From Candidatus Nomurabacteria bacterium (lineage in GTDB: Bacteria > Patescibacteriota > Minisyncoccia > Phycocordibacterales > UBA918): 64,000 bases of DNA. The position numbers and the translations under genes were made by a program. The stretch is from the NCBI GenBank assembly GCA_023898565.1, contig CP060228.1, positions 560,594 to 624,593 of the forward strand. Reading direction: 5' to 3'. Below the pieces are notes generated by a model that was given only the letters and a program-made list of their open reading frames with translations, did not search any database and was not told the DNA's origin. Shown here piece by piece: positions 16,750-58,075 of this stretch; position 1 is the first letter of the stretch; each line of letters begins with the position of its first letter.

Positions 16750-17238
16750 ATGACGAAAAAAGCAGTAGTAGCAGGTGGGTGTTTTTGGGGGCTCGAGGAT
16801 TTGATTCGCGACCTAAAGGGTGTAGTGCGTACTGAAGCGGGATACACAGGTGGAGAAAATGAAAATCCAACCTATGAGCAGCACCCAGGACATGCGGAAG
16901 CGGTAGAGATTGAGTATGACCCAGAGGTAGTGGATTATCGTCACATCCTGGATTTCTTTTTTCAGATTCATAATCCCACTACGCTCAATCAGCAAGGGAA
17001 CGATAAAGGAACTTCCTACCGTTCGGCAATCTTCTACAGTAATGAAGAAGAGAAGCGAGTGGCTGAAGAGATGATTGCGGTGGTGAATGAGTCTGGTCGC
17101 TGGGATGACTCGGTAGTTACAACGCTTGAACCACTGACGCGTTTTTGGCCGGCAGAAGAATATCACCAGGATTATTTAATAAAGAATCCGGGTGGGTACA
17201 CGTGTCATGCGATTTATTTCGAGAGTTATCTAGATTAG
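16750..17238 (+). CDS. msrA: Peptide methionine sulfoxide reductase MsrA
   Basis: GGCFWGLE active-site motif. Confidence 0.85.
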
Positions 17239-17312
17239 AAAAGCGGGCGGGCCCTATGGGCCCGCCCGCTTTTCTAAAAGGACAACAGCACGCGGGTGGG
17301 CGTGCTGTTGTC
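17238..17312. terminator. Two convergent terminator hairpins (msrA on plus, helicase on minus)
   Basis: aaaagcgggcgggccc tat gggcccgcccgctttt, and gacaacagcacgc gggtgg gcgtgctgttgtc. Confidence 0.8.
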
Positions 17313-19180: not shown

Positions 19181-20566
19181 ATGAGTATTGAATTGCAGGC
19201 AGACTACAAGCGCGCCTTTAAAGACGCTGACATCCGAGCGATTTATCCGACTGAAATTGATGAAGAGCTAGTGTACTTTGTAGCGCGAGCGTTTGTGGAA
19301 GAGTTTGGCTATACGAAAGTGCTTGTCGCGCGTGACATGCGCCTCTCGACACCGCAGCTTCATGCTGCCTTTCTCAAAGGTGCAACCGACTCAGGCGCAG
19401 CGGTCGTAGATATTGGCCAGGTGTTCACACCAGCGCTGTACTTTGCCTCAGCGACGATGAATCTCCCAGGAGTGATGATTACTGCCTCACACAGTCCAAA
19501 GGAATACAATGGACTTAAGCTCGTACATGCGCAGGCGATTCCGCTCACCGAAAAGTCTGGGCTTGGCAAAATTCGCAAACGCATTGAACGTGGGAAATTT
19601 GTGGATGCGAAGAAGGTGGGTAAGGTGACCGCCAAGGATGTGCTGAAGGGCTACCAGCGGTTTGTGCTGAAGGGCTACAAAGCCAAGAAGCTTGCAGGGA
19701 TGAAGATTGCCACCGATGCGGGCAATGGTATGTCGTCGGTGCTTTTGCCGCTTCTTCAGGAAAAACTTCCGGCGAAGTTTGATGTGCTATTTCCAAAGCT
19801 TGATGGCGCGTTTCCAAATCGCGGTTCTGACCCAACGCTGCGGGCTCATCAGGAGCCACTGCGTGAACAGTTGGCTAAGAAAAAGTATGACTTCGGTGTG
19901 GCCTTTGATGGCGACTCTGATCGCATTGCGTTCTTAGATGAAAATGGCCAGTATATCAATAGCGCGGTTATCGGTGCGCTAATCGCTGAGTACTATTTGG
20001 CAACCAATCCAGGAGCAAAGATTGGCTACACCGGACTCACCAGTCGCTCGTTTGAAGAAGCGATTAAGCGCGCTGGCGGAAAGCCTGTTCTGATGAAAGT
20101 CGGTCATGCCTTTATTAAGGAAAGTATGCGTAAGCAAGATGTGCTTTTTGCCGCCGAGCACTCAGGCCATTTTTACTTCAAGGATTATTTCTTCACCGAC
20201 TCAGTGACACTCACGCTTTTGGCGGTGTGCGACGCGTATGCGCTAGTAAAAGCTGAAGGGAAGACGTTTAGTGAAATGATGGCGCCACACCTAGAATATG
20301 AACAAACTGAGGATGTGGTGGTGATGGTAAAAAATAAAGAAGTAGCGCTCGAAAAAACCCGCGTGTACCTCGAAAGCTTGCAGCCGAAGAAGCTTAAGAA
20401 AGCGGATGGGTACATCGTGGATTTTGGTGAGGTGTGGGGGATGGTCAAGCCGAGTGTGACTGAGTATGCACTGAAGCTTATGTTTGAATCGAAGAAAAAG
20501 TCTTTGGCGGTAAAAATGCAGAAGGACTTGGTGAAGTTTGTGAAGAGCGTGGCGAAAGTCGAGTAA
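19181..20566 (+). CDS. Phosphoglucomutase/phosphomannomutase (alpha-D-phosphohexomutase)
   Basis: Active-site TASHSPKEYNGLK, metal-binding FDGDSDR; TATACT -10 at 19165-19170. Confidence 0.8.
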   Translation: MSIELQADYKRAFKDADIRAIYPTEIDEELVYFVARAFVEEFGYTKVLVARDMRLSTPQLHAAFLKGATDSGAAVVDIGQVFTPALYFASATMNLPGVMITASHSPKEYNGLKLVHAQAIPLTEKSGLGKIRKRIERGKFVDAKKVGKVTAKDVLKGYQRFVLKGYKAKKLAGMKIATDAGNGMSSVLLPLLQEKLPAKFDVLFPKLDGAFPNRGSDPTLRAHQEPLREQLAKKKYDFGVAFDGDSDRIAFLDENGQYINSAVIGALIAEYYLATNPGAKIGYTGLTSRSFEEAIKRAGGKPVLMKVGHAFIKESMRKQDVLFAAEHSGHFYFKDYFFTDSVTLTLLAVCDAYALVKAEGKTFSEMMAPHLEYEQTEDVVVMVKNKEVALEKTRVYLESLQPKKLKKADGYIVDFGEVWGMVKPSVTEYALKLMFESKKKSLAVKMQKDLVKFVKSVAKVE

Positions 20567-20630
20567 TTGCCGAGCTTGCTGAAATTTCAAGGATTGCGAA
20601 CAGGCGATGATTAGCTAGGAAGGCGAAACA

Positions 20631-20670
20631 GAAAAAGCCAATGTTTGAGCTTGCGAGTTTTGGCTTTTTC
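20631..20670 (+). terminator. Intrinsic terminator after the phosphohexomutase gene
   Basis: aaaaagccaa ...loop... ttggcttttt. Confidence 0.6.
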
Positions 20671-20863
20671 GTTGTTGCGCCGACCATAGCTATTTCGCGT
20701 GGAAGCATTTTGCTTGGAATTTTAGGGAGCGAGCAATATGGCATCATCAGACACGGATCAAGTCCTATGCTCAGCCGTTTAGGAGACGGCTTCCGCAATG
20801 TCCTCTTCAGCCACATTGCTCACTTCCTTTTATCAGAGCCTTCTGCTACGATGCGATACATAT

Positions 20864-21613
20864 ATGAAAGCAGAAGTGGAATTTATTTTTGGGAAGCATG
20901 CTGTGCGCGAGGTGCTTAGAGAGCGGCCAGATGTAGTTGCCGAGATTCATGCGGCGGCGGATTTTTCTGATGAGTCAATTTTGGCGTTGGCTGACAAATA
21001 TAAGCTACCGCTTCGGGTGCTCAACCTAAAAAATCCGCCGCGTGGCGTCTCGTCTAAAGCTGCGCATCAGGGGATTGTGGCAGGCATTTTGCCGAGCAAG
21101 CTCACCATTCCATTTAAGACGTTTAAGTCTACCTTGGAAGCAACTCCAGGTACGGCGCTTTTGGTGCTTGGTGAGGTGCAAGATCCACATAATGTTGGCG
21201 CAGTGATTCGCTCCGCTGCTGCGTTTGGTCTAAAGGGTGTGCTGATCCCGCCACACAATCAAGCGCCAATTACTGGCACGGTGGTGAAGGTATCGGTTGG
21301 TATGGCGTTTCGGATTCCGCTCGTGACTATTCCAAATGTAAATACTGCACTGCGTGACCTCAAGCAAAGCGGCTTTTGGACGTATGGTCTCGAAGGCGAT
21401 GGTGCCACTTCTACTACGACTGAAAAATTTACTAAACCAACAGTCTTTGTGCTCGGTAATGAAGGGTCGGGGTTGCGGGAAAAGACGAAAGAGGAGTGCG
21501 ATGAGCTCATTTCAATTCCGATTCATCCCCAGTGTGAATCACTAAATGCTGCCGCAGCAACGGCCATTGTGCTCTCGAGTTGGTCATCCCAACACCCTGA
21601 GGCTTTGTCATAG
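20864..21613 (+). CDS. SPOUT-class RNA 2'-O-methyltransferase (RlmB/TrmH family)
   Basis: SpoU motifs VLGNEGSGL and IPIHPQCESLNAAAATAIVL. Confidence 0.75.
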   Translation: MKAEVEFIFGKHAVREVLRERPDVVAEIHAAADFSDESILALADKYKLPLRVLNLKNPPRGVSSKAAHQGIVAGILPSKLTIPFKTFKSTLEATPGTALLVLGEVQDPHNVGAVIRSAAAFGLKGVLIPPHNQAPITGTVVKVSVGMAFRIPLVTIPNVNTALRDLKQSGFWTYGLEGDGATSTTTEKFTKPTVFVLGNEGSGLREKTKEECDELISIPIHPQCESLNAAAATAIVLSSWSSQHPEALS

Positions 21614-22531: not shown

Positions 22532-22585
22532 AAAAACCAGCAGAAAGGCCGGCCCCTTCGGGGCCGGCCTTTCTGCTGGTTTGTT
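22532..22585 (+). terminator. Long intrinsic terminator (21-bp stem)
   Basis: aaccagcagaaaggccggcccc ttcg gggccggcctttctgctggtt. Confidence 0.85.
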
Positions 22586-22603
22586 TCTATCTGGTATACT
22601 TGG

Positions 22604-24754
22604 ATGTACATTATGGTGCGAACTCTTACCCCAACCAAACTCCTCTTCTTAATCTTCGGCATCTCTGCTCTGGTCTACTTTTCTTTTTTTGCCGCCAACG
22701 CTTCTTTTGAGTTTGCTCGTACCACTGATACGTTAGTGTCAAACACTCTCGATGATGGCTTAGTCGGTCACTGGACCTTTGATGGACCGGATGTGGATTG
22801 GTCGGCGACCACTGCTGAGATTAAGGATGTGGTCAGCACTAACGAAGGCAATGCTCTTAATTTGGCTGCTGCCAATGTAACATCAGGCGCTTTGGGACAG
22901 GCGGTCTTGTTTGATAAGGGTATTTCAGGACAGGCGGTCAGTGTTGGTTCTGCTGCTGCCTTGGATGATTTGACACAAAGAACAGTTGTAATGTGGATTA
23001 GACCAACCGGTACGCAGAGTGTTGGAACCTTATTTACTAAAGACTTTTCCTCACCGTTGTTGTCAATGTCGGGCGGTTCGTTGATGGTGCGTGCAAGTTT
23101 TTCAACTATGGATGGTTGGTGGATTTCGGAGGTTTCACCCCAAAACGATGTGTGGCAGCAAGTTGCAGTAACATACGACAGAAGTTCTACTACTAATGAT
23201 CCAGTAATGTACATTAATGGCGAGTCAGTGATGGTATCTGAAGTGCTTGGTCCGTCAGGAAGTTATGTTTCAAATGCTGCAAATACTGCACATATTGGCG
23301 GCTGGCTTGGAACTTCGGTAACCTTTAATGGCGGCATAGACGATGTTCGTGTGTATAACCGCATTCTCTCTCCAGACGAAATCGCCCAGCTCTACGCCAT
23401 GGGCGAGGGTGTTAAAGTCGCCACCACTATCGTATCTGCAGCTAGCACGCTCGATGATGGCCTGGTTGGCCACTGGACCTTCGATGGCGTAGACATAAGC
23501 GGCACCACCGCCTACGATCTCACGAGCAGCTACGCTACGGGCACGCTCACGAGCGGCGCGGCGGTGGCTGGCGGCGCGATTGGGCAGGGTATTGCGCTTG
23601 ATGGCAGTGATGATTTTGTGACGGTCGCCGACACCGCCGCGCTCGACTTCGGCGCGAGCGCCGACTTTACGCTCTCGGGCTGGTTTCGTCGCGAGAGTTA
23701 TACCACCGACGACACGCTCATCGCCAAGCGTAATGGCCTCGCCAACACCGATGATGGCTACATTGCCTACATCGACGATGCTGACGATAAATTCTACTTT
23801 GAAGTGTCAGAAAATAGCGGCACCGATGAATATAGCTTAGTTTCCACTCGCACCTTCACCGACAACGACTGGCATCATTTCATGGTGACATGGGATGATG
23901 ATAACGCCAACAACACCAATCTGTTCATTGACGGCACCTACGAAACTACCGTGAAGACGGGTACAATTGGGAATATTGGTGATCTCTCCACGGCGCTCGC
24001 GTTTCGCATTGGTGCTGAAAGCGATGGCGACAATCCCTTTGCCGGCAAGGTAGACGATGTAAAAGTATACAACCGCGCGCTGTCCACCGCTGAAGTGTAC
24101 CGTACTTACAGCAGCGGCTCGGCGTACCTGCGCACCTGTGGTAGCGTGACCGACGCGGACGGCAATCTCTACAGCACGCTCGTAATAGGCACCCAGTGCT
24201 GGCTGGCGCAAAATATGCGGGTAGGTACGCGCATTAGTGCCTCCACCGCTCAAACCAACAACGCCACTATTGAGAAATGGTGCTACTCAAACTCTGACGC
24301 CAACTGCACCAGTAATAACCCCAACGAACCCGATGGCGGTCTCTACCAATGGAACGAAGCCATGCAGTACAGCTCGACCCAAGGCGCGCAGGGCATCTGC
24401 CCGGCTGGTTGGCACATTCCCACCCACGATGAGTTCACTACTCTAGAAAGAGCCCTCTGCACCTCCAGCACCTGCGCCACCGACTTCCCGTATGACACCA
24501 CCACTGCTGGCTACCGCGGTACTACCGAAGGTACGAAGCTCAAGCCAAATGGCACCGCCGGCCTCAATTTCAACCTCGCCGGCCTCGGTTTCTCGGGGTC
24601 GTTCAGCAATCGCGGCACGTACGGTTACGTCTGGTCGTCTTCGGAGTCTGGTGCCTTTGCTTGGTCCCGCTACGTGCTCTCAGGTACTGCCCAAGTGGTC
24701 CGGTACGCGTACGGCAAGTCTAACGGGTTATCCGTGCGCTGCGTGAAGGACTAA
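22604..24754 (+). CDS. DGR target protein: signal/TM anchor, two LamG-like domains, C-terminal C-type-lectin-fold FISUMP/DUF1566-like domain carrying the variable region
   Basis: Two LDDGLVGHWTFDG...DDV(R/K)VYNRxLS LamG-like modules; C-terminal GNLYSTLVIGTQCW...GGLYQWNEA...CPAGWHIPT...SVRCVKD; TATACT -10 just before ATG. Confidence 0.8.
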   Translation: MYIMVRTLTPTKLLFLIFGISALVYFSFFAANASFEFARTTDTLVSNTLDDGLVGHWTFDGPDVDWSATTAEIKDVVSTNEGNALNLAAANVTSGALGQAVLFDKGISGQAVSVGSAAALDDLTQRTVVMWIRPTGTQSVGTLFTKDFSSPLLSMSGGSLMVRASFSTMDGWWISEVSPQNDVWQQVAVTYDRSSTTNDPVMYINGESVMVSEVLGPSGSYVSNAANTAHIGGWLGTSVTFNGGIDDVRVYNRILSPDEIAQLYAMGEGVKVATTIVSAASTLDDGLVGHWTFDGVDISGTTAYDLTSSYATGTLTSGAAVAGGAIGQGIALDGSDDFVTVADTAALDFGASADFTLSGWFRRESYTTDDTLIAKRNGLANTDDGYIAYIDDADDKFYFEVSENSGTDEYSLVSTRTFTDNDWHHFMVTWDDDNANNTNLFIDGTYETTVKTGTIGNIGDLSTALAFRIGAESDGDNPFAGKVDDVKVYNRALSTAEVYRTYSSGSAYLRTCGSVTDADGNLYSTLVIGTQCWLAQNMRVGTRISASTAQTNNATIEKWCYSNSDANCTSNNPNEPDGGLYQWNEAMQYSSTQGAQGICPAGWHIPTHDEFTTLERALCTSSTCATDFPYDTTTAGYRGTTEGTKLKPNGTAGLNFNLAGLGFSGSFSNRGTYGYVWSSSESGAFAWSRYVLSGTAQVVRYAYGKSNGLSVRCVKD
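24575..24750 (+). repeat. DGR variable region (VR), 176 bp, last codons of the target gene
   Basis: Matches TR 25422-25597 except 17 positions, 16 at TR adenines; 3' 40 nt identical (IMH-like). Confidence 0.9.
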
Positions 24755-24829
24755 TCTCTTGGACTCTTTTCCTCTTTTCACGCAATTTTCTTATGTCACT
24801 AACATACCAACTTTAGTCACCCTCTTTGT

Positions 24830-25180
24830 ATGACCACTACCAATAATTTGCCCGTATACAAGGAAAGCTACGATCTCATTGAAGAGCTGTTTCGATACGT
24901 CAAGGAATTCAATCGGGAATATAAGTACACGCTTGGCGAACGTGTCAAAACTGAAATGATTGCGCTTGTAATAGATATCTATCGTGCAAATAGTTCAATC
25001 GAAAAGCGTGGTGAGCATATCAAGTCGGCTCGGGAGCGGGTGGAAGTGATTCGCTTGCTCTTGCGTCTGCTCCGCGATCTGCGACAGCTTCCGCTCGAGA
25101 AGTTTGTGTCACTCAATGTGAAGATTGAATCAGTGAGTCGGCAACTCACCGGCTGGCTCAAAAAGAGTCAGGCCAAGTAG
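24830..25180 (+). CDS. avd: Accessory variability determinant (Avd; four-helix-bundle / 23S rRNA IVS-protein family)
   Basis: 116 aa, basic helical protein with IVS-protein family pattern. Confidence 0.75.
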   Translation: MTTTNNLPVYKESYDLIEELFRYVKEFNREYKYTLGERVKTEMIALVIDIYRANSSIEKRGEHIKSARERVEVIRLLLRLLRDLRQLPLEKFVSLNVKIESVSRQLTGWLKKSQAK

Positions 25181-25421
25181 TATTGAAGGCCTACGCCCGA
25201 GGACTGTCCTCGGGCACTGGTAGCTGGTAGGGTATACTAGGTGAGCCAGAGCTGAGTGCTGTTACGACACACTCAGGAGTGCATGATGAATCCAGTCATC
25301 CTCCTTGGCAACACTCACGAAGTGGGTGTCGCCAAGGGTTGCGGAGTGTCCCTCCCTTGCTGCTGGCGGCAATCATAAGTCCGTCAGTGGTGAAAGATAA
25401 GTGATGGCTTCCTAACGATAG

Positions 25422-25597
25422 CTCGCCGGCAACGGTTTCTCGGGGTCGTTCAACAATCGCGGCACGAACGGTAACGTCTGGTCGTCTTCGGAGTCTGGTG
25501 CCAGTGCTTGGAACCGCAACGTGAACTCAGGTACTGCCCAAGTGAACCGGAACGCGAACGACAAGTCTAACGGGTTATCCGTGCGCTGCGTGAAGGA
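25422..25597 (+). repeat. DGR template repeat (TR)
   Basis: In-frame AAC codons at all variable sites; followed by an 11-bp perfect hairpin (25610-25637). Confidence 0.9.
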
Positions 25598-25687
25598 TTC
25601 ATCGGTAATACAAAGCAAGCATAGCGCTTGCTTTGTGTGTTTAGTAAGGTAATTTGAAATGATTTTCATTTCTGCTACACTGAAAAT

Positions 25688-25906
25688 ATGAAAAAGCAAG
25701 TTCACATTATGCTTGATATCGAACGCCTTCCAGAGGGGTGTTATCTAGCGACGAGCAAAGATGTGCAAGGGCTTGTTGTGCAAGCAAAAACTTTTGAAAA
25801 GACCATAGAGATTGCAGAAGATGTTGCTCGACAACTTCTCTTGGCGCAGAAAGGAAAACATACATCACCTGAGCGTATCTTGTATCCGATGACTATTACT
25901 GCCTAG
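25688..25906 (+). CDS. hicB: HicB-family antitoxin
   Basis: UPF0150/HicB fold pattern (EGCYLATSKDVQGLVVQAKTFEKTIEIAEDV). Confidence 0.65.
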   Translation: MKKQVHIMLDIERLPEGCYLATSKDVQGLVVQAKTFEKTIEIAEDVARQLLLAQKGKHTSPERILYPMTITA

Positions 25907-25909
25907 TGT

Positions 25910-26134
25910 ATGGGGCGGCTTTCTGGTATTACGTATCGTGCACTTTCAAAAAAGTTGCGTTCTTTTGGTTTTGTATTTTGGCGGAGCGCTAAGGGAAGTC
26001 ATGAGATTTGGTACAACGAAGCACAGGATATTTTTACTACTATCCCTCGGCATACTGGCGATATGGCGGAGGGTACCGTGCGGGCAATATTGAAACAGGC
26101 TAGTATTGAAGTTGATGACTTTTTAAAATTGTAA
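25910..26134 (+). CDS. hicA: HicA-family mRNA interferase toxin
   Basis: KGSHEIW ... IPRH ... GTVRAILKQA motifs of HicA/YcfA. Confidence 0.7.
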   Translation: MGRLSGITYRALSKKLRSFGFVFWRSAKGSHEIWYNEAQDIFTTIPRHTGDMAEGTVRAILKQASIEVDDFLKL

Positions 26135-26139
26135 AAACA

Positions 26140-27324
26140 TTGAGTCGTATATTAAGTAGCTCATCTCCCTTACTTACTGATCTTTTTAAGGCCTACGAAG
26201 ACGCGCGGCGACATAAGCGAAAAACAAAAGGTACGCTGGAGTTTTCACTCAATTACGAAGAGCGACTGTTTGAACTTTACGAAGACCTTGTGTGTCGGCG
26301 TTACAAAATTGCCCCTGCAACCTGCTTTATTGTGACCAAGCCAGTTCGGCGCGAAATATTTGCGGGTGATTTCCGCGACCGTATCGTACATCACCTCATT
26401 TTTAATTATCTCAACCCGCTCTGTGAACGACTGTTTACCAACGACAGCTATGCGTGTCGAAAGGGGAAGGGGACGAGTTATGGTATTAAGCGCGCCGACC
26501 ACTTTATTCGCTCTGTTTCTCACAATTACACGCGCGACTGCTACGTACTACAGCTCGATATAAGTGGGTATTTTATGTCAATCAACCGCACAATCTTGTA
26601 CGAGAAAGTGACGCGCATCATCGAACGATATCGTGATGAAATAACGTTTGATACAGAGCTAGTGTTGTGGCTTTTGGAGAAAATAATCTTTCACGACCAC
26701 ATCAAGGCGTGTATCCAGTGTGGGGACACGAGTAATTGGACCGAGTTGCCATCATCGAAAAGTCTATTCCACGCGGCACCTGGCTGCGGGTTACCGATCG
26801 GTAACCTCACTTCACAGTTATTTGGAAACGTGTATCTCAATGACTTTGATCATTTTGCGATGCGACTGGTGCCAGGGGTGCGCTGTGGTCGGTATGTCGA
26901 TGATATGATTTTTGTACATCAAGATAAAGAAGTGCTGAGGCAAATAATTCTCAAAGTGCAATATTTTCTTTCTGAAAAATTAGCGCTTACGCTGCACCCG
27001 CGCAAGATTAAACTGACTCACTATGAGCAGGGAATTGATTTTTTAGGAGCGCGGATGTTTCGTGGCCGGATGTATCCACGTCGGCCGATCGTGACAAACG
27101 TGGAGCGGACAATCATGCAGTGGAATGAAGTGTTGCAAGTGAATGATGTGCTAACCGAAGCCGAGGTGCAGAAATTGCTGGCATCTATAAATGCTTCGCT
27201 AGGTCACCTAGCGTTTTTTCAGACGAGACGACTGCGTCAGTGTTTGTTGGCGAGATGTATGCCTGCTTTCTTGCGGCATGTTCAGTGTGATAAATCATTT
27301 CGAACGCTTGCGAGGATGTGGTGA
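26140..27324 (+). CDS. DGR reverse transcriptase
   Basis: RT motifs with DGR-specific SQ (NLTSQLFGNVYLN) and catalytic YVDD (GRYVDDMIFVH). Confidence 0.9.
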   Translation: MSRILSSSSPLLTDLFKAYEDARRHKRKTKGTLEFSLNYEERLFELYEDLVCRRYKIAPATCFIVTKPVRREIFAGDFRDRIVHHLIFNYLNPLCERLFTNDSYACRKGKGTSYGIKRADHFIRSVSHNYTRDCYVLQLDISGYFMSINRTILYEKVTRIIERYRDEITFDTELVLWLLEKIIFHDHIKACIQCGDTSNWTELPSSKSLFHAAPGCGLPIGNLTSQLFGNVYLNDFDHFAMRLVPGVRCGRYVDDMIFVHQDKEVLRQIILKVQYFLSEKLALTLHPRKIKLTHYEQGIDFLGARMFRGRMYPRRPIVTNVERTIMQWNEVLQVNDVLTEAEVQKLLASINASLGHLAFFQTRRLRQCLLARCMPAFLRHVQCDKSFRTLARMW

Positions 27325-27365
27325 AAAGAAGCGGCCGGAAGCGAAGCTTCCGGCCGCTTCTTTTC
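27325..27365 (+). terminator. Intrinsic terminator after the RT gene
   Basis: aaaagaagcggccggaagc gaa gcttccggccgcttctttt. Confidence 0.85.
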
Positions 27366-35805: not shown

Positions 35806-35852
35806 AAAACATAAAAGCGGGCGACCCGAAGGGTCGCCCGCTTTTATGTTTT
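35806..35852. terminator. Bidirectional intrinsic terminator
   Basis: aaaacataaaagcgggcgaccc gaa gggtcgcccgcttttatgtttt. Confidence 0.85.
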
Positions 35853-46541: not shown

Positions 46542-49484
46542 CTACTGCCAGAATGACAAACTTCCGCCAAAGTTGCGCAGCCAATTAGTGAAGCGTCCCA
46601 ACATGTTCGCTGGCAAGAGCGACGCACTGCGGTATTGAATGGTGGTGGTTTGTGTTGACCAATTTATTTTGTCGCCAAGAAGAATCATTTTACGTTGTGT
46701 AACAACAGTTGGCTTTTTTGTCGCTACAGTATTGTTCACCCTTACATCTCCAGCTGGCAATGGTGAGCTATTAGGTACGGCAGTATTCGCAACTGGTTTT
46801 GCTGATGAGGCTGTGCTATCTCGATAGTGGGCTATTTCTGCAATTTGTTCAGTACTGAGCGGAAAGGTGATGGTGTTGGCACAGTATATCTCATTGATTT
46901 GTTTCTGGGTGGTGTAGTACACGTATCCCGTCGGATCAGTGATTCCCCATGGTATGAGTATGGTGGCACGATGTCTTCGCTGAAAATCGCGTACGGCTCG
47001 TTCGGTCGCTTGATCAAAGTGGCCAGTAGGAACGAGGCTTGTGTCAATCTGCTCTTGCAAAAATCGTTGCAGCTTCAGTACCTCGGTCGGGTCATTGTTT
47101 GCTCCGGCGCGAAGGTAGTCTTGTAGATATGGTTCACAGCTGGCGCTAGTAGAGATACCGAGTACTTGTGGCTGCGCTCCAGTGATTTTGATAGGTGTCG
47201 TAGCAATTTCAGAATCGTACTCCTGCATAAATTGCGCCTTTCTATTTTTATGGTACCCAAGCACTTGCGCGCTGTTGGTGTACGTACCGGGACCAATTTC
47301 GCTGTCGAAGGTAATTTCATAGGTAACCGTGATAGTCTCGTCAGCATCAATCGTGTAGAGTGGCCAGTTTTGGTCCAGCACAATACCATCTGCTTCATCG
47401 TAAAGTGTGTCGTACAAAATGCCGTTAAAGACCGGTCCTCCGTGGTTCGTAATGGCTACTTCGTACTCGACAGTATCACCAGGGAGAATGATTTCTTTGT
47501 TAGCAGTTTTGGTGATTTCAATATCGGCATTTCGAGTAATATCATTGGCGCCAAAACCGTTGCTATTAGAGTGCCCCCGAGTGATATTTTCAGCAATAAC
47601 GGTTACCACTTCTTCATTATTGGCGTGATTTTCGTCAGGCTCAGCGCTGGTAATAGAGGCGGTTAGATTAATAGGGAACGAACCGTTTGGGAGTGTGTCT
47701 GTCACACGCGCAGCGTAGGTGAGTTCGACCATCTCACCTGGTTCAATGGTGCCGAGGGAAATATTTTGTAGCGGAGTATTAAGTTGAATCAGGCTACTGT
47801 CTAGGACGCCGTTTAAAACCACATTGTTGGCAGCGCTGTCGCCAAGATTGCTGACAGTGAAGGTGTATTCAATCGCGGCGCCAGACCCAGTGTTGCCGCC
47901 GATGGCACTGGCTGTTCCGCCAATCCAAAGATCAGGTTGGCCAAATGAAAGATTGCCCATCCAATCGCCAAAAATATCAAAGATAAGGAGCGACCAGTTG
48001 CGACCAAGGATGTTGGTGTTTGCGATGTTGGTGATGTTGGTAGTGGCGTAGGCGTCACCAGTTTCGATGTGGCTGAGACTATCACCAGAAGTGCTGTTGC
48101 CACCGGTGGATGCGCTGACCGAAACGTTGTTTTCAATATCGGCAATGTTCACAATGTCGGCCGATATGCCACGGGTGGCGGGGGTGGTTTGGCCACCAGT
48201 ATTAGTGATCGCGATGCCCCCGGGAGTCGCAAACCAGCTGAGGTTGTCTGGCAATCCGAAGACCGAACCGTTCCAGTCGCCATGGATACGGAAGAGCATG
48301 ACAAACGAATCGTCATTAACCACGTTAGTATTCACTTGATTGTATACGTTGGTGTAGGTGGTGGCGTCGCCGGTGTCAATGTAGCCACCGCTGGTGGAGG
48401 CAGTCGAAGACGCGGCGTTGCCTCCGGTGTTGGCGGTGGTGGTTACGTGATTTTCAATCGTGGCTTGATTGTCTGCCTGATAGGCGAGCGCGCTGACGCC
48501 GCTCGTGTATTGAAAGAGTTTTTCGAGCAATGATTTGTTTGGCAGGACGATGTCGCCAAGTAGGTCACCGAAGTTACTGAACGAAAGCACAAGGTAGTTG
48601 GCATCAATAATATTGGTGTTGGTCACGTTGGTCACGTTGGCGCCGGCGTAGGCGTCGCCAGTGATGATCGCTGCGCCACTGCCGCTGGCGTGATTCCCAC
48701 CAGTGTTGGCGCTCACAGTGACGGTGCTGGAGGTGGTGCTGTAGTTGTTGAGGAGATACTGCTCAAGACTTGCTCCATCGCAACCATCAGAGCTACAGCG
48801 GCCGGTGCTGGTGTCGGAGAACACATCAAACATATCTCGAATGTCGACGGTACCTGCGCCAAATAGCTGATTGATAAAGGCAATGAAGCCAGTGGAGTTG
48901 ATGATGTTTGTGTTGGTGAGGTTAACGACATTGGCGTAGGCATAGGCATCGCCAGTCACGATAGCGCTCGGGCCATCACCCGCTGCCGTGTTGCCGCCAG
49001 TGTTGGCACTGGTGGTGGCGTTGTTTGTGGTGGTGGCATGGTTATCTATGGCGATGGTTGAGCTCGCTACTGCATCGGTCGATGTGGCGGTGGAGCTGGC
49101 GTCAAGGGCATGAAGGGGAGTGGTGGTAGGAGTTGAACTAGCGGTTGGTACGAGGCTGTCTTCAGTGGAAGAAGCTATTTCGGTGTCACCTTCGCTGCTG
49201 GTGCTACTTGCGGTGTTAGCAGCTTGGCCAGCGGCTTGTTCAGTGCTGGTGGCAGTACCTTCAGTATCAATCTTGTTGGTGTTACTGGTGATGACTGTGT
49301 CACTAATCGCTACGGCGTCGCCGGTGTCCACAATCGCATCTGGTGTTAGTTCGACTGGTTCGGCCGTTTGCGCTAGGGCGGTCGCTCCTGGCGAGAGAGT
49401 TAGAATCATGCCACAAATCAGCAGACCGCTGACTGCACGAGTAAAGTGCTTGGATGGCTTAAAAAAGTTGTTCCACATACGCAT
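46542..49484 (-). CDS. Large secreted repeat protein: four approximately 78-aa repeats (ANTGGN..G....I.TGDAYA..NV.N.TNTNI...F..FGDW.G), then CARDB-like region and C-terminal peptidoglycan-binding domain
   Basis: Signal peptide; internal repeats; PG_binding_1-like LKLQRFLQEQIDTSLVPTGHFDQATERAVRDFQRRH; longest ORF extends to 49547. Confidence 0.7.
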   Translation of the reverse strand: MRMWNNFFKPSKHFTRAVSGLLICGMILTLSPGATALAQTAEPVELTPDAIVDTGDAVAISDTVITSNTNKIDTEGTATSTEQAAGQAANTASSTSSEGDTEIASSTEDSLVPTASSTPTTTPLHALDASSTATSTDAVASSTIAIDNHATTTNNATTSANTGGNTAAGDGPSAIVTGDAYAYANVVNLTNTNIINSTGFIAFINQLFGAGTVDIRDMFDVFSDTSTGRCSSDGCDGASLEQYLLNNYSTTSSTVTVSANTGGNHASGSGAAIITGDAYAGANVTNVTNTNIIDANYLVLSFSNFGDLLGDIVLPNKSLLEKLFQYTSGVSALAYQADNQATIENHVTTTANTGGNAASSTASTSGGYIDTGDATTYTNVYNQVNTNVVNDDSFVMLFRIHGDWNGSVFGLPDNLSWFATPGGIAITNTGGQTTPATRGISADIVNIADIENNVSVSASTGGNSTSGDSLSHIETGDAYATTNITNIANTNILGRNWSLLIFDIFGDWMGNLSFGQPDLWIGGTASAIGGNTGSGAAIEYTFTVSNLGDSAANNVVLNGVLDSSLIQLNTPLQNISLGTIEPGEMVELTYAARVTDTLPNGSFPINLTASITSAEPDENHANNEEVVTVIAENITRGHSNSNGFGANDITRNADIEITKTANKEIILPGDTVEYEVAITNHGGPVFNGILYDTLYDEADGIVLDQNWPLYTIDADETITVTYEITFDSEIGPGTYTNSAQVLGYHKNRKAQFMQEYDSEIATTPIKITGAQPQVLGISTSASCEPYLQDYLRAGANNDPTEVLKLQRFLQEQIDTSLVPTGHFDQATERAVRDFQRRHRATILIPWGITDPTGYVYYTTQKQINEIYCANTITFPLSTEQIAEIAHYRDSTASSAKPVANTAVPNSSPLPAGDVRVNNTVATKKPTVVTQRKMILLGDKINWSTQTTTIQYRSASLLPANMLGRFTNWLRNFGGSLSFWQ

Positions 49485-49887
49485 GTAAATAATTAAGCAG
49501 AGCCTCAAGCTGTGACCAGAGCTCAGCTGGTGTGGTTGAGGTTGCAAAGGCGGAGGGGAGCTTTGTGGATGTCTGGTCTAATGAAAACGTGCTGCTGGAG
49601 GTGGTACCAGACGTGGAGCGCACGATACTGGTCTGCGTGGTTACTGTGCCACCAGTGGTGGTAGCGAAATGGTACGACGATCTCTCCCCGTTAATAACCG
49701 TCGTCTGTGACATCTCCACACTGCTCACGCCGCCGGTGTCGACATGCGCGCTGGTTATAATCTCAGTAACACTGCTGCTTTGAGATGCTGCAAACAGCGG
49801 CTCTGGGAAGCAGAGTATGATACCGAGTAATAGTGTGTACCCGAGTCGGGTATTGGTGTGGAATGGTTTCATATCCTTCATGCCCAA
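49459..49887 (-). CDS. Secreted Thr/Ser-rich protein (142 aa)
   Basis: Signal peptide; TGGV...TGGT motifs; overlaps start of the downstream large gene. Confidence 0.5.
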   Translation of the reverse strand: MGMKDMKPFHTNTRLGYTLLLGIILCFPEPLFAASQSSSVTEIITSAHVDTGGVSSVEMSQTTVINGERSSYHFATTTGGTVTTQTSIVRSTSGTTSSSTFSLDQTSTKLPSAFATSTTPAELWSQLEALLNYLHAYVEQLF

Positions 49888-49953
49888 ACTTCGATATGAG
49901 AGCTCAAAGTCTGGGCAAAAGGAGCGAGGCTCCCTTTGCGTTAGGGCGTGTGC

Positions 49954-51126
49954 TTAGCGCACAAGCACGCGCACACGATTAACGATGTTGGTTAGTTCTG
50001 AGCGAGTGTCAGCAGCGCCAGTGAGCACTGAGCCACCATCCGAACTCGTACCACCGTTACCACCACTACCAGTGGTAGCGTCATCTACCTCTTGATCGGC
50101 GTTATCATCGCCGTCACCTCCTTCATTCTCAATATCACCACCGTTACCACCGCTTCCGGCGTAGCTACCATCAGCGTAGTTATCACCAGTGTCGGCCTTG
50201 GTGCGGATACTGTTCATGAGGAAGGCGGAGTCGCGAAGATGGACGCGAATTCGATTGAGGCTCGAAGTGGCGTCGCAGCCACAGTTATCTACAGTAACCG
50301 TAGCCGAATTTACGTCGTTGCCGACGGTGCTTTCAGCAGTCGCATCACCCGTCTGCACCGCACCACCAAAGCCACTGTTACCACCGGTACCACCGTTACC
50401 AGTGGTAGCCCCTTCAACATCTTGCTCACCATACTCATTCTCAATATCACCACCGTTACCGCCGTCACCGGCGTAACTACCATCAGCCGAGTTGTCTCCA
50501 GTGTCGGCTTTGGTCTCGACGTGGTTCATGACCATGGCGTCACCGTGGAGTGAGATGTGGACACTAGTCGGTTTTTGTGGTTTTGGTTCTGGGCAGGTCT
50601 CATCGTAATCAGCGGTAAAGGAGTCAACATCGAAACCGTCAGAGGTATCGTTGTGTAAGCTAGAGTCTGTGGTGTCTACAACACGCACATACTGATAGCA
50701 CTCTTCAACACGGAGCTCTGACGCGCCGTCACCGTCACCTTCTTCGTTGGTGGCCTCACCAACGAAGGTCCACGGTCCAGCCGGGTTGGTGCTGACATAG
50801 ACGTCAGCAGTTTCGAGTGGATAGACACCGCCGGTCACTTCCTGCACGGTGAGAAGGAGATTCCCGCTCATGTTCTGTGCAAAGCCGACGACGAGTTCAC
50901 CGCCGTAGCCGAGCGACACAAACGATCCGTCAGCGACGCCAAGAGCGGCGCTTGGATCAGAGCGAGCGGGGGCAACCACAGCCCCGTTTTTTTGAAGTCC
51001 TTGGCTGAAGGACTCATTGCTACTCGCGTTATCGGTAGCAGCAAACGCAAGGGTTGCGCTCACAAAGAACAAAGAGAGGATCAGTGCGAGCAAGCTAATT
51101 CGTTGTAAAATTGATGCGTACGTCAT
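49954..51126 (-). CDS. Secreted repeat protein (390 aa), paralogue of 51261..51998
   Basis: Signal peptide; ADTGDN.ADGSYAG.GGNGGDIENE repeats; C-terminal 177 aa nearly identical to paralogue. Confidence 0.7.
   Translation of the reverse strand: MTYASILQRISLLALILSLFFVSATLAFAATDNASSNESFSQGLQKNGAVVAPARSDPSAALGVADGSFVSLGYGGELVVGFAQNMSGNLLLTVQEVTGGVYPLETADVYVSTNPAGPWTFVGEATNEEGDGDGASELRVEECYQYVRVVDTTDSSLHNDTSDGFDVDSFTADYDETCPEPKPQKPTSVHISLHGDAMVMNHVETKADTGDNSADGSYAGDGGNGGDIENEYGEQDVEGATTGNGGTGGNSGFGGAVQTGDATAESTVGNDVNSATVTVDNCGCDATSSLNRIRVHLRDSAFLMNSIRTKADTGDNYADGSYAGSGGNGGDIENEGGDGDDNADQEVDDATTGSGGNGGTSSDGGSVLTGAADTRSELTNIVNRVRVLVR
50011..50541. repeat. 531-bp near-identical direct repeat, copy A (copy B at 51321-51851)
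   Basis: Only a handful of mismatches across 531 bp; covers the 3' halves of the two paralogous genes. Confidence 0.9.
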
Positions 51127-51260
51127 ATGTAATGATGATTTAAACTGGTTAATAAAGATATATAGAACCCTTTATTAAGACCTTGTCATCGACTGTGGTG
51201 ACCAGATCTTAAGTAAGGGGAAGAGAAGTGTCTCTTCACACCCTACTTAGCACTAATCAA

Positions 51261-51998
51261 TTAGCCGCGAACGCGAACGAGTCGGCTGTTTACCAAGTTG
51301 ACGAGATTGGTGCGTGAGGTAGCAGCTCCAGTGAGCACTGAGCCACCATCCGAACTCGTACCACCGTTACCACCACTACCAGTGGTAGCGTCATCTACCT
51401 CTTGATCGGCGTTATCATCGCCGTCACCTCCTTCATTCTCAATATCACCACCGTTACCACCGCTTCCGGCGTAGCTACCATCAGCGTAGTTGTCGCCAGT
51501 GTCGGCCTTGGTGCGGATACTGTTCATGAGGAAGGCGGAGTCGCGAAGATGGACGCGAATTCGATTGAGGCTCGAAGTGGCGTCGCAGCCACAGTTATCT
51601 ACAGTAACCGTAGCCGAATTTACGTCGTTGCCGACGGTGCTTTCAGCAGTCGCATCACCCGTCTGCACCGCACCACCAAAGCCACTGTTACCACCGGTAC
51701 CACCGTTACCAGTGGTAGCCCCTTCAACATCTTGCTCACCATACTCATTCTCAATATCACCACCGTTACCGCCGTCACCGGCGTAACTACCATCAGCCGA
51801 GTTGTCTCCAGTGTCGGCTTTTGCCTCGACGTGGTTCATGACCATGGCGTGGCTAGCGATAGAGATTTCTACGCCAGAATGAAAATTGTGATAGCCTTCT
51901 TCATTCGCGTACGCAACTTGGGTTGCAAAGAAAGCTGCAACCATGAGTGCTGCGGCAGCAAGTGCGCCGCTCACCACTCGTGTATATGTAGTCGTCAT
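51261..51998 (-). CDS. Secreted repeat protein (245 aa), paralogue of 49954..51126
   Basis: Signal peptide; same repeat motifs. Confidence 0.7.
   Translation of the reverse strand: MTTTYTRVVSGALAAAALMVAAFFATQVAYANEEGYHNFHSGVEISIASHAMVMNHVEAKADTGDNSADGSYAGDGGNGGDIENEYGEQDVEGATTGNGGTGGNSGFGGAVQTGDATAESTVGNDVNSATVTVDNCGCDATSSLNRIRVHLRDSAFLMNSIRTKADTGDNYADGSYAGSGGNGGDIENEGGDGDDNADQEVDDATTGSGGNGGTSSDGGSVLTGAATSRTNLVNLVNSRLVRVRG
51321..51851. repeat. 531-bp near-identical direct repeat, copy B
   Basis: See copy A. Confidence 0.9.
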
Positions 51999-54786: not shown

Positions 54787-54796
54787 GGAGGGTGTA

Positions 54797-54836
54797 AAAC
54801 AGCGGGCGGGCCCAAAGGGCCCGCCCGCTGTTTTGC
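54797..54836 (+). terminator. Intrinsic terminator
   Basis: aaaacagcgggcgggccc aaa gggcccgcccgctgtttt. Confidence 0.85.
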
Positions 54837-58025: not shown

Positions 58026-58035
58026 GTTGATACAA

Positions 58036-58075
58036 AACGGCCGGAAGCTTCGCTTCCGGCCGTTTTGTATTCTGC
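58036..58075. terminator. Bidirectional intrinsic terminator
   Basis: aaaacggccggaagc ttcg cttccggccgtttt. Confidence 0.85.

Follow-up and report, generated by a model that had tools for sequence, protein, structure and literature searches.

Diversity-generating retroelements (DGRs) have been catalogued in a number exceeding 30,000, include one clade restricted to Patescibacteria and show widespread activity in natural populations (Roux et al. 2021, PMC8144416). The core consisting of the gene for an accessory variability determinant (avd), of a template repeat (TR) and of the gene for a reverse transcriptase (RT) is known as architecture B and occurs in 68% of DGRs, and variable repeats (VRs) overlapping DUF1566, DUF823 or Fib_succ_major constitute category 'd' (14% of DGRs), the exemplar of which is LdtA of Legionella (Wu et al. 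2018, PMC5758913). In the DGR of the Bordetella phage BPP-1, it was found that the RT-Avd complex is wrapped by RNA from both sides of the TR, 20 nt upstream and 140 nt downstream, that an Avd-binding stem-loop is located just 3' of the TR and that the so-called 'cPRT Stop' duplex pairs sequences flanking the TR on both sides; in the survey of other DGRs in the same work, the sequence upstream of the TR was limited to 40 nt (Handa et al., preprint 10.1101/2023.10.23.563531). The RNA motifs RT-1 to RT-19 were described near RT genes, and only RT-10 was tied to a DGR, being the spacer of BPP-1; it was speculated that other RT motifs serve DGRs, and RT-7 was left without an assigned function (Weinberg et al. 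2017, PMC5737381). Here we consider a DGR-like locus (positions 22,604 to 27,324) within a stretch of 64,000 nucleotides from Candidatus Nomurabacteria bacterium (GenBank assembly GCA_023898565.1, contig CP060228.1, positions 560,594 to 624,593 of the forward strand). This whole stretch is called the window, and all positions given below are counted from its first letter.

In our opinion, the locus is a chromosomal and currently active DGR, and we put the probability of this at about 0.93. The cassette is made up of the target gene with its VR, avd, an RNA resembling RT-7, the TR, a hairpin, an inserted hicB-hicA pair (hicBA) and the RT gene (Table 1), and its neighbours are housekeeping genes (phosphoglucomutase/phosphomannomutase, SpoU, a SurA-like protein, MgtE, DUF192 and MurJ). 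The initial annotation of this DNA had proposed a complete DGR, and its DGR-type RT, its Avd and its adenine-specific VR/TR pair were each tested and found. The order that it gave, from the target through avd, the TR and the hairpin to the RT, lists the right parts and has to be amended by the hicB-like and hicA genes, which lie between the hairpin and the RT gene. The LdtA element of Legionella pneumophila resembles the locus in the target-avd-TR-RT order, the presence of Avd, adenine mutagenesis, the location of the VR at the C-terminal end of a lectin-like domain of the Fib_succ_major/DUF1566 type and a target predicted to be extracellular. It differs in that the target here has two N-terminal LamG domains and no lipobox of the LdtA kind, in that hicBA is inserted after the TR, ahead of the RT gene, and in the host, which here is a member of Patescibacteria. 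The cellular DGRs known from Patescibacteria (the Candidate Phyla Radiation, CPR) also belong to uncultivated bacteria that diversify surface or attachment proteins; nothing substantive differs, and compared with those surveys, activity at the present locus is documented over five assemblies.

Table 1. Positions of the parts of the cassette in the window
Feature	Position	Strand	Remarks
Target gene	22604..24754	+	716 aa from the likely start ATG 22604; hydrophobic N-terminus, two Laminin_G_3, C-terminal Fib_succ_major
Variable repeat (VR)	24575..24750	+	last 176 nt of the target coding sequence; end 24731-24750 IMH-like
avd (accessory variability determinant)	24830..25180	+	116 aa; PF22296 bAvd
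Structured non-coding RNA leader	25245..25415	+	RT-7-like; abuts the 5' end of the TR
Leader parts	5' hairpin 25245-25282; X 25285-25293; Y 25294-25300; inner hairpins; Y' 25403-25409	+	
Template repeat (TR)	25422..25597	+	non-coding, 38 adenines; identical in all six assemblies
Segment X' (GGATTCATC)	25595..25603	+	at the 3' border of the TR; complement of X (25285-25293, GATGAATCC)
Post-TR hairpin	25610..25636	+	11-bp stem, 5-nt loop; folding z = -4.9
hicB-like antitoxin gene	25688..25906	+	72 aa; DUF1902 E 1e-3
hicA toxin gene	25910..26134	+	74 aa; PF07927 HicA_toxin
DGR reverse transcriptase	26140..27324	+	394 aa, TTG start 5 nt after the hicA stop
GC-rich hairpin closing the cassette	27329..27359	+	repeat families D5/D7, inverted repeat I4; probably a terminator shared with the neighbouring gene

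A base-by-base recount agreed with the initial annotation in that VR and TR, both on the forward strand, are aligned without gaps over 176 nt with 17 mismatches, of which 16 concern adenines of the TR; the TR has 38 adenines, and enrichment at them gives Fisher p = 1.6e-11. The lone mismatch of another kind in the window is G25504 to T (VR 24657). A repeat search found no second VR-like copy of the TR in the 64-kb window, which thus contains a single VR/TR pair.

Other assemblies of the locus were found by exact-protein look-up of the RT (L001 to L006) and compared position by position, all VR alleles being assembly consensus sequences, that is, population consensus and not reads. Two of the assemblies (L003 and L006) are identical to the window, and four are divergent (L001, which is GCA_020428845.1, L002, L004 and L005). 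Among the public records with this locus are ERZ27248697, ERZ27309307, ERZ28654902, ERZ28655237 and SRR6747722. The VR of each of the four differs from that of the window at 15-17 positions per 176 nt (85-97 per kb), and the rest of the target gene, 1.9-2.0 kb in length, shows only 1-3 differences per divergent assembly (0.5-1.6 per kb). Positions 24751-27324, comprising 2,574 nt with avd, the RNA leader, the TR, hicBA and the RT gene, have no differences in all six assemblies. Considering the five VR alleles together, 28 positions in 24575-24750 vary either against the TR or among the alleles, and 26 of them correspond to TR adenines; the remaining two are G25504, changed in the window only, and T25472, changed in L005 only. 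Pairwise distances between the VRs of these otherwise near-identical cassettes amount to 7-17. The VR thus differs from the TR, and between populations, almost solely at TR adenines, and the TR remains constant. In these consensus sequences the flow is one-way, with five VR alleles against zero differences in the TR. The earlier statement that the element has been active and targets adenines only is confirmed as to activity by the occurrence of different VRs on identical cassettes, and has to be relaxed as to adenines, since 2 of the 28 variable positions are not adenines.

Outside the cassette, L001 and L002 differ from the window at 27-29 single-nucleotide variants (SNVs) per kb in 20164-21598. 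This SNV-dense stretch takes in the SpoU methylase gene and the 3'-terminal part of the phosphoglucomutase gene, and its SNVs are mostly spaced at multiples of three; it seems to have been acquired from a diverged strain by homologous recombination. In the remainder of the compared 13 kb there is less than one difference per kb.

At the level of codons, 14 of the 16 substituted adenines of the window belong to in-frame AAC codons of the TR, and two to AGT (codon 710) and GAC (codon 729), so that the suggested restriction of all variable adenines to AAC codons is true for the former and not for the latter (codons and residues are numbered as in the 741-aa frame considered below). The 17 codons seen to vary include 11 AAC and six others, and the number of protein variants reachable at them was computed as 8.3e16. 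Stop codons could be reached by replacement of adenines with any nucleotide from two TR codons only, AAG 730 and AAG 740, and from none of the codons seen to vary. Codon 730 (25563-25564) lies within the mutagenised zone, is unsubstituted in all five alleles and corresponds to a position where Lys is kept in 46 of 60 family members, which suggests purifying selection on VR variants and not protection of its adenines.

The 3' end of the repeats does contain an identical stretch, as had been noticed earlier, with other borders. The final mismatch in the window is at 24714, and this stretch therefore begins at 24715 and not at 24711, comprising 36 and not about 40 nt. Adenine substitutions in other assemblies extend to VR 24730 (TR 25577, the last adenine seen mutated), and hence the invariant VR end is 24731-24750. 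A lower homology of VR and TR is continued past 24750/25597 to 24756/25603 and includes two fixed differences not related to adenines (24751, C vs T, and 24753, A vs C), common to all five VR alleles. Judged by sequence, the pair of initiation of mutagenic homing sites (IMH/IMH*) would be represented by the GC-rich invariant end 24731-24750 followed by the fixed differences at 24751 and 24753. The TR adenines 25593, 25594 and 25597, located beside or within segment X' (see below), were never substituted in the five VR alleles. A search 3' of the VR for a hairpin or cruciform such as that of BPP-1 gave weak structure only (-8.9 kcal/mol, z = -2.7) and no convincing hairpin.

The best relative of the RT among PDB structures is 8ub7, the Bordetella phage DGR RT (bRT), with E 3.1e-30, the runner-up being a group II intron RT (2.4e-12). 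In the alignment, IGNLTSQLFGNVY faces IGSLTSQLFANVY of bRT, and RYVDD is also present; thus, both the motif 4 signature of DGR-type RTs, [I/L/V]GxxxSQ, and their YxDD were found, as the initial annotation had stated, and 8ub7 is the closest solved relative. The Pfam family RVT_1 was matched at 2.3e-17, and the RT sequence has no differences across the six assemblies. The avd gene recognised earlier is corroborated by PF22296 bAvd (1.6e-16, 61.2 bits, cut-off 40). The match of its product to NCBIfam NF033474 DivGenRetAVD (1.2e-14, 54.5 bits) is below the cut-off of 80, and no meaningful match to PDB sequences was obtained. In PADLOC, the RT was best matched by a generic RT model, and Avd, HicA and HicB were not matched, which gives no ground for assigning the element to a defence system.

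When genomes were scanned with the RT, 58 related loci were obtained, mostly in metagenome-assembled genomes (MAGs) of Patescibacteria and Bacteroidota, the closest relative being found in a Candidatus Nomurabacteria MAG (L007, 68% identity). An avd homologue is situated directly upstream of the RT in 47 of these loci, and 24 loci have a long (at least 150 nt) TR/VR pair in the fetched DNA; among the scorable pairs, a large majority have most of their mismatches at adenines. In these loci, 3-72 nt separate the end of the TR from the RT start (with two exceptions of about 190-236 nt), and 70-436 nt separate avd from the TR. Some related loci have peculiarities of their own. In L043 (Dysgonomonadaceae, 1201-2065), avd and RT are separated by a tandem array of three TR-like copies of the end of the lectin domain; the gap of 960 nt is the same as in the window, and there is no toxin-antitoxin pair in it. 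A second RT or avd-RT copy stands beside the first one in two loci of Bacteroidota (L036, 5122-9430, and L063, 4167-7206), and these second copies may be tandem DGRs or a decayed duplicate. In L021 (4769-4955 and 5498-6747), a sub-threshold match to a group I intron (45.4 bits vs the gathering score of 50) is located between the DGR RT and a 16S rRNA gene.

The target gene had been read as an open reading frame of 741 aa with the GTG start 22529. Such a frame crosses the 20-bp terminator hairpin (22537-22579) of the upstream SurA-like gene, and because of this overlap ATG 22604 or ATG 22613 is preferred; the start is likely to be ATG 22604 (716 aa) or ATG 22613 (713 aa, as in GCA_020428845.1). 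Public annotations of the target length are in conflict, giving 741, 716 or 713 aa. A TATACT box (22586-22591) would leave almost no leader before ATG 22604. The protein from the revised start opens with MYIMVRTLTPTKLLFLIFGISALVYFSFFAANA, a hydrophobic signal or anchor segment which ends in ANA and is predicted to serve as a signal peptide or a membrane anchor. Pfam search showed two Laminin_G_3 stretches and Fib_succ_major (FISUMP; 2.9e-28, aa 553-740), and the match to Lcl_C (PF07603, formerly DUF1566; E 1.8e-5) was below the cut-off. Therefore, of the earlier description of the target, the anchor segment, the two LamG domains and the C-terminus of FISUMP/DUF1566 type stand, and the length of 741 aa gives way to the probable 716 aa from ATG 22604.

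The VR overlaps the Fib_succ_major motif, as in category 'd' of Wu et al. (CLec2), and is located within the coding target at the end of a variation-tolerant fold of the C-type lectin kind, as is expected of a DGR. A search with the C-terminal 212 aa gave more than 1,000 proteins with the FISUMP domain, many of them from Patescibacteria, and fold matches of this domain include proteins similar to the formylglycine-generating enzyme and dozens of C-type lectin domains. In an alignment of 60 family members, which have a common pattern of variable and constant columns, the highest variability was found in the columns of the codons varying here, with a mean entropy of 3.08 bits against 1.45 bits (p = 3e-8). 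The variable residues 713/715/717 and 724/726/728, spaced as i/i+2, alternate with near-invariant W, S, R and C in the last beta-strands. Judging from secondary structure and this alternation, the variable residues would be located on one exposed face of the sheet.

A second subject of interest is the RNA in which the template is embedded, whose structured part upstream of the TR had escaped the initial annotation. The 242 nt that separate avd from the TR belong to a region with a more stable fold than shuffled sequence (z = -4.2 for 25181-25660). A full-length match to Rfam RT-7 (RF03028, model positions 1-191) was found at 25245-25415 with 48.6 bits and E 2.4e-10. The leader shares with RT-7 the 5' hairpin, the GCCAGAG...GAGUGC frame, the 7-bp closing helix and an RT gene as neighbour. 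Its score of 48.6 bits lies below the gathering score of 116.8, and by the Rfam criterion it is a relative of RT-7 and not a member. At gathering thresholds, Rfam recognises tRNAs alone in the window and RT-7 in none of the relatives, and the relation becomes visible only with E-value thresholds. With these, sub-threshold RT-7 matches of 33-67 bits were obtained in 13 of 19 relatives tested, and in all nine of the 13 where the TR was mapped the match ends within about 10 nt of the TR start. Within the collection of papers searched, none names both RT-7 and DGRs.

A covariance model designated R1, built from ten leader regions, had matches in 41 of 48 related loci, all of them on the strand of the RT, and one match in the 64-kb window; wherever avd was mapped, the R1 element is located between avd and RT. 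Its three helices are paired in 95.7% of cells over the 41 loci and the window, and in 33-49% when the partners are slid by 1-3 columns. Compensatory changes are found in 13 of 16 pairs, and none of 500 shuffles was as high; the alignment was fitted to the model and is biased toward structure, and the slid controls carry the same bias. The closing helix is formed by Y (25294-25300, AGUCAUC) and Y' (25403-25409, GAUGGCU), the latter 12 nt 5' of the TR. The 9 nt immediately 5' of Y, segment X (25285-25293, GAUGAAUCC), are complementary to segment X' (25595-25603, GGAUUCAUC), with 9 of 9 pairs in the window. The X/X' pairing was tested over 32 loci with anchors independent of pairing, X being taken as the segment adjoining Y, and X' as the one at a constant distance of 5 nt from a conserved Cys codon. 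It was 83.7% paired against 16-48% in slid controls, and double-change cells numbered 77 against 27.8 in shuffles, with 0 of 500 as high. A scan for the longest duplex as a sign of long-range pairing turned out to be too unspecific, and anchored alignments were used instead. The version of X' in the TR forms more pairs with X than that of the VR, 9 against 7 in the window and 9 against 6 in L007. As a general rule, preservation of X pairing by the fixed TR/VR differences in X' was rejected, since over 17 loci the means were 7.5 vs 7.4 pairs.

At least in part by inference, two covarying helices that lie next to each other appear to hold the template between them as an extruded loop of about 185 nt; Y/Y' closes 12 nt before the TR, X/X' joins the leader to the TR at its 3' boundary, and the ends of the template are thereby brought together. 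The RNA essential in BPP-1 consists of 20 nt upstream and the 140-nt downstream spacer, the region of Rfam RT-10. In contrast, here and in the relatives a large structured RNA of about 170 nt, similar to RT-7, lies upstream of the TR, X is located about 130 nt upstream, and usually 3-72 nt are left in the relatives from the TR to the RT start; moreover, the element of the window is chromosomal and not phage-borne. By analogy, the clamp formed by the two helices probably does the job of the BPP-1 spacer RNA and the 'cPRT Stop' duplex. The 11-bp hairpin noted earlier after the TR is real, and at its position L007 has a 14-bp stem of different sequence. This hairpin is probably a counterpart of the Avd-binding stem-loop located downstream of the TR in many DGRs, and it is plausible that it and the X/X' duplex correspond to the stem-loop and the 'cPRT Stop' duplex of BPP-1, respectively.

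These data lead to a wider proposal, namely that a clade distributed across Patescibacteria, Bacteroidota and other phyla may position its template with an RNA built unlike that of the Bordetella phage model, with an RT-7-like element of about 170 nt upstream, a Y/Y' and X/X' clamp and almost nothing needed downstream. We hold it as a tentative one, with chances somewhat below even. In a bolder version, X, which is equally complementary to the homing end of the VR, could guide the cDNA or RNA to the target site.

Following the BPP-1 paradigm, the element would operate as follows. The RT-Avd complex would bind RNA spanning the leader, the TR and the hairpin. Synthesis of complementary DNA (cDNA) would begin just 5' of X/X', between TR 25578 and about 25592, and proceed toward the 5' end of the TR; such a start fits the data, since the last mutated adenine is 25577 and the adenines in 25593-25597 are untouched. 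The synthesis may end near the Y/Y' helix, with adenines being miscopied in its course, and the cDNA would replace the VR with the GC-rich invariant end 24731-24750 as the homing anchor. The expected product is a secreted or membrane-anchored binding protein, in which ligand binding or host-cell attachment would be diversified. In an episymbiont of Patescibacteria, the surface bound would plausibly be that of a host cell or some other one.

The hicBA pair distinguishes the locus from all its relatives. HicA was recognised by PF07927 (1.6e-14, 54.2 bits, cut-off 27), its PDB matches are 1whz (6e-7) and the HicA-family toxin 9svk, and its histidine motif KGSHEIW is intact and aligned with 1whz. 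The hicB-like product matched DUF1902 with E 1e-3 and 19.7 bits, below the Pfam cut-off of 22, and no sequence match to it was found in PDB. The pair is similar to HicAB type II toxin-antitoxin modules in that HicA is above the Pfam cut-off, the catalytic-type histidine is kept and the small partner gene is directly upstream. In contrast to those modules, the order is hicB and then hicA, HicB has 72 aa without a recognisable DNA-binding domain, and a location inside a DGR was found at no other locus examined. Among 80 metagenomic hicA loci, a hicB homologue is immediately upstream of hicA in 76, and neither RT nor avd was found within 3 kb in any of the 80; hicA or hicB was absent from all 58 related RT loci. 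In the alignment with L007, the extra DNA of the window falls between the post-TR hairpin and the RT start, and the TR-to-RT distance is 537 nt against the usual 3-72 nt of relatives. Thus, the pair is a widespread two-gene module which, according to these distributions (0 of 58 and 0 of 80), landed once inside this DGR as a later insertion specific to one lineage. All four assemblies with divergent VRs carry hicBA without sequence difference, which, by parsimony, suggests that VR turnover continued after the insertion and that mutagenesis was not stopped by it. For the wider proposal on the clamp, the insertion would be a natural experiment in its favour, the RT gene having been moved about 500 nt from the template without an end to mutagenesis.

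Three other explanations should be weighed. The element might be a decayed relic, its mismatches recording past activity and the differences between assemblies arising from ordinary mutation, selection or strain recombination. In favour of a relic are the recombination tract nearby with its 27-29 SNVs per kb at 20164-21598 in L001 and L002, the weak TTG start of the RT and the parting of the RT from the template by the insertion. It is difficult to reconcile a relic with the concentration of variable VR positions at TR adenines (26 of 28), with VR differences about 100-fold above those of the flanking target (85-97 vs 0.5-1.6 per kb), with avd, TR and RT intact and identical in every assembly, and with VRs that are 7-17 differences apart on near-identical cassettes; we consider it very improbable. 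An even smaller chance, close to negligible, is given to an RT of another class (group II intron, retron or defence-type DRT/Abi) accompanied by repeats of unrelated duplication. Weak partial matches to generic group II intron, retron and DRT models do occur, but they are far under the family cut-offs (group II RT/maturase 104.6 vs 300 bits), a DGR RT is the best solved relative by 18 orders of magnitude in E-value, the Rfam search found no intron RNA or retron msr/msd family, and the locus has the SQ motif, an Avd gene alongside and a TR/VR pair whose mismatches are adenine-specific.

The last alternative concerns hicBA itself, which could be a functional part of the DGR, acting as an addiction module, by promoter or translational coupling to the RT, or through processing or limitation of the template RNA by the HicA RNase. 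The pair is placed exactly in the interval from the post-TR hairpin to the RT start, the RT begins with TTG 5 nt after the hicA stop, a promoter-like site (25654-25681: TTGAAA, 16 nt, TACACT, with TG) precedes hicB directly, and hicBA is identical in six assemblies with the histidine motif of HicA intact. Against this, hicBA is missing from all 58 related RT loci, and the absence of RT and avd near the 80 hicBA relatives points to a single event, as expected for a mobile toxin-antitoxin cassette entering an intergenic gap. No paper tying HicA to DGR function was found within the collection of papers searched. A functional role of hicBA is hence unlikely, though it is the least improbable of the three, and an active DGR with a later insertion of hicBA is preferred.

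Several points nevertheless weigh against our interpretation. Non-adenine positions make up two of the 28 that vary in the VR. The evidence consists of assembled consensus VRs and so concerns diversity between assemblies. The leader scores far under the RT-7 gathering score, and the placement of the variable residues on a single face comes from secondary structure and alternation. Finally, such steps of the mechanism as RNA binding by RT-Avd and the start and priming of cDNA are carried over from the Bordetella phage.

Two other features of the window may be mentioned. GC-rich hairpins similar to each other (AAAAGCGGGCGGGCCC...GGGCCCGCCCGCTTTT is an example) are found at gene ends at 83-120, 17236-17273, 27322-27361, 35810-35847, 54793-54832 and 58028-58065, the member at 27322-27361 closing the DGR cassette; they are probably intrinsic terminators of a common sequence type or a small repeat family. 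The region 47996-51849 is rich in repeats, with 300-nt copies 1,310 nt apart (94% identical) and nested repeats of 97-114 nt, and probably encodes a large repetitive surface protein.

As a DGR, the locus adds little, because FISUMP/DUF1566 targets are established and the abundance of DGRs in CPR bacteria is known. It provides a clean case of activity in public assemblies, with five VR alleles on otherwise identical cassettes. The presence of hicBA between the template and the RT demonstrates that a disturbance of cassette spacing is tolerated without loss of function, which is relevant to the engineering of DGRs for targeted mutagenesis. For an orphan RT-associated RNA motif, similar to RT-7, a defined location in DGRs and a probable function there are indicated, and the two helices bracketing the template lead to predictions on the start and stop of cDNA in DGRs beyond the Bordetella phage model. 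If the clamp formed by the RT-7-like RNA is real, the orphan Rfam motif RT-7 would obtain a function.

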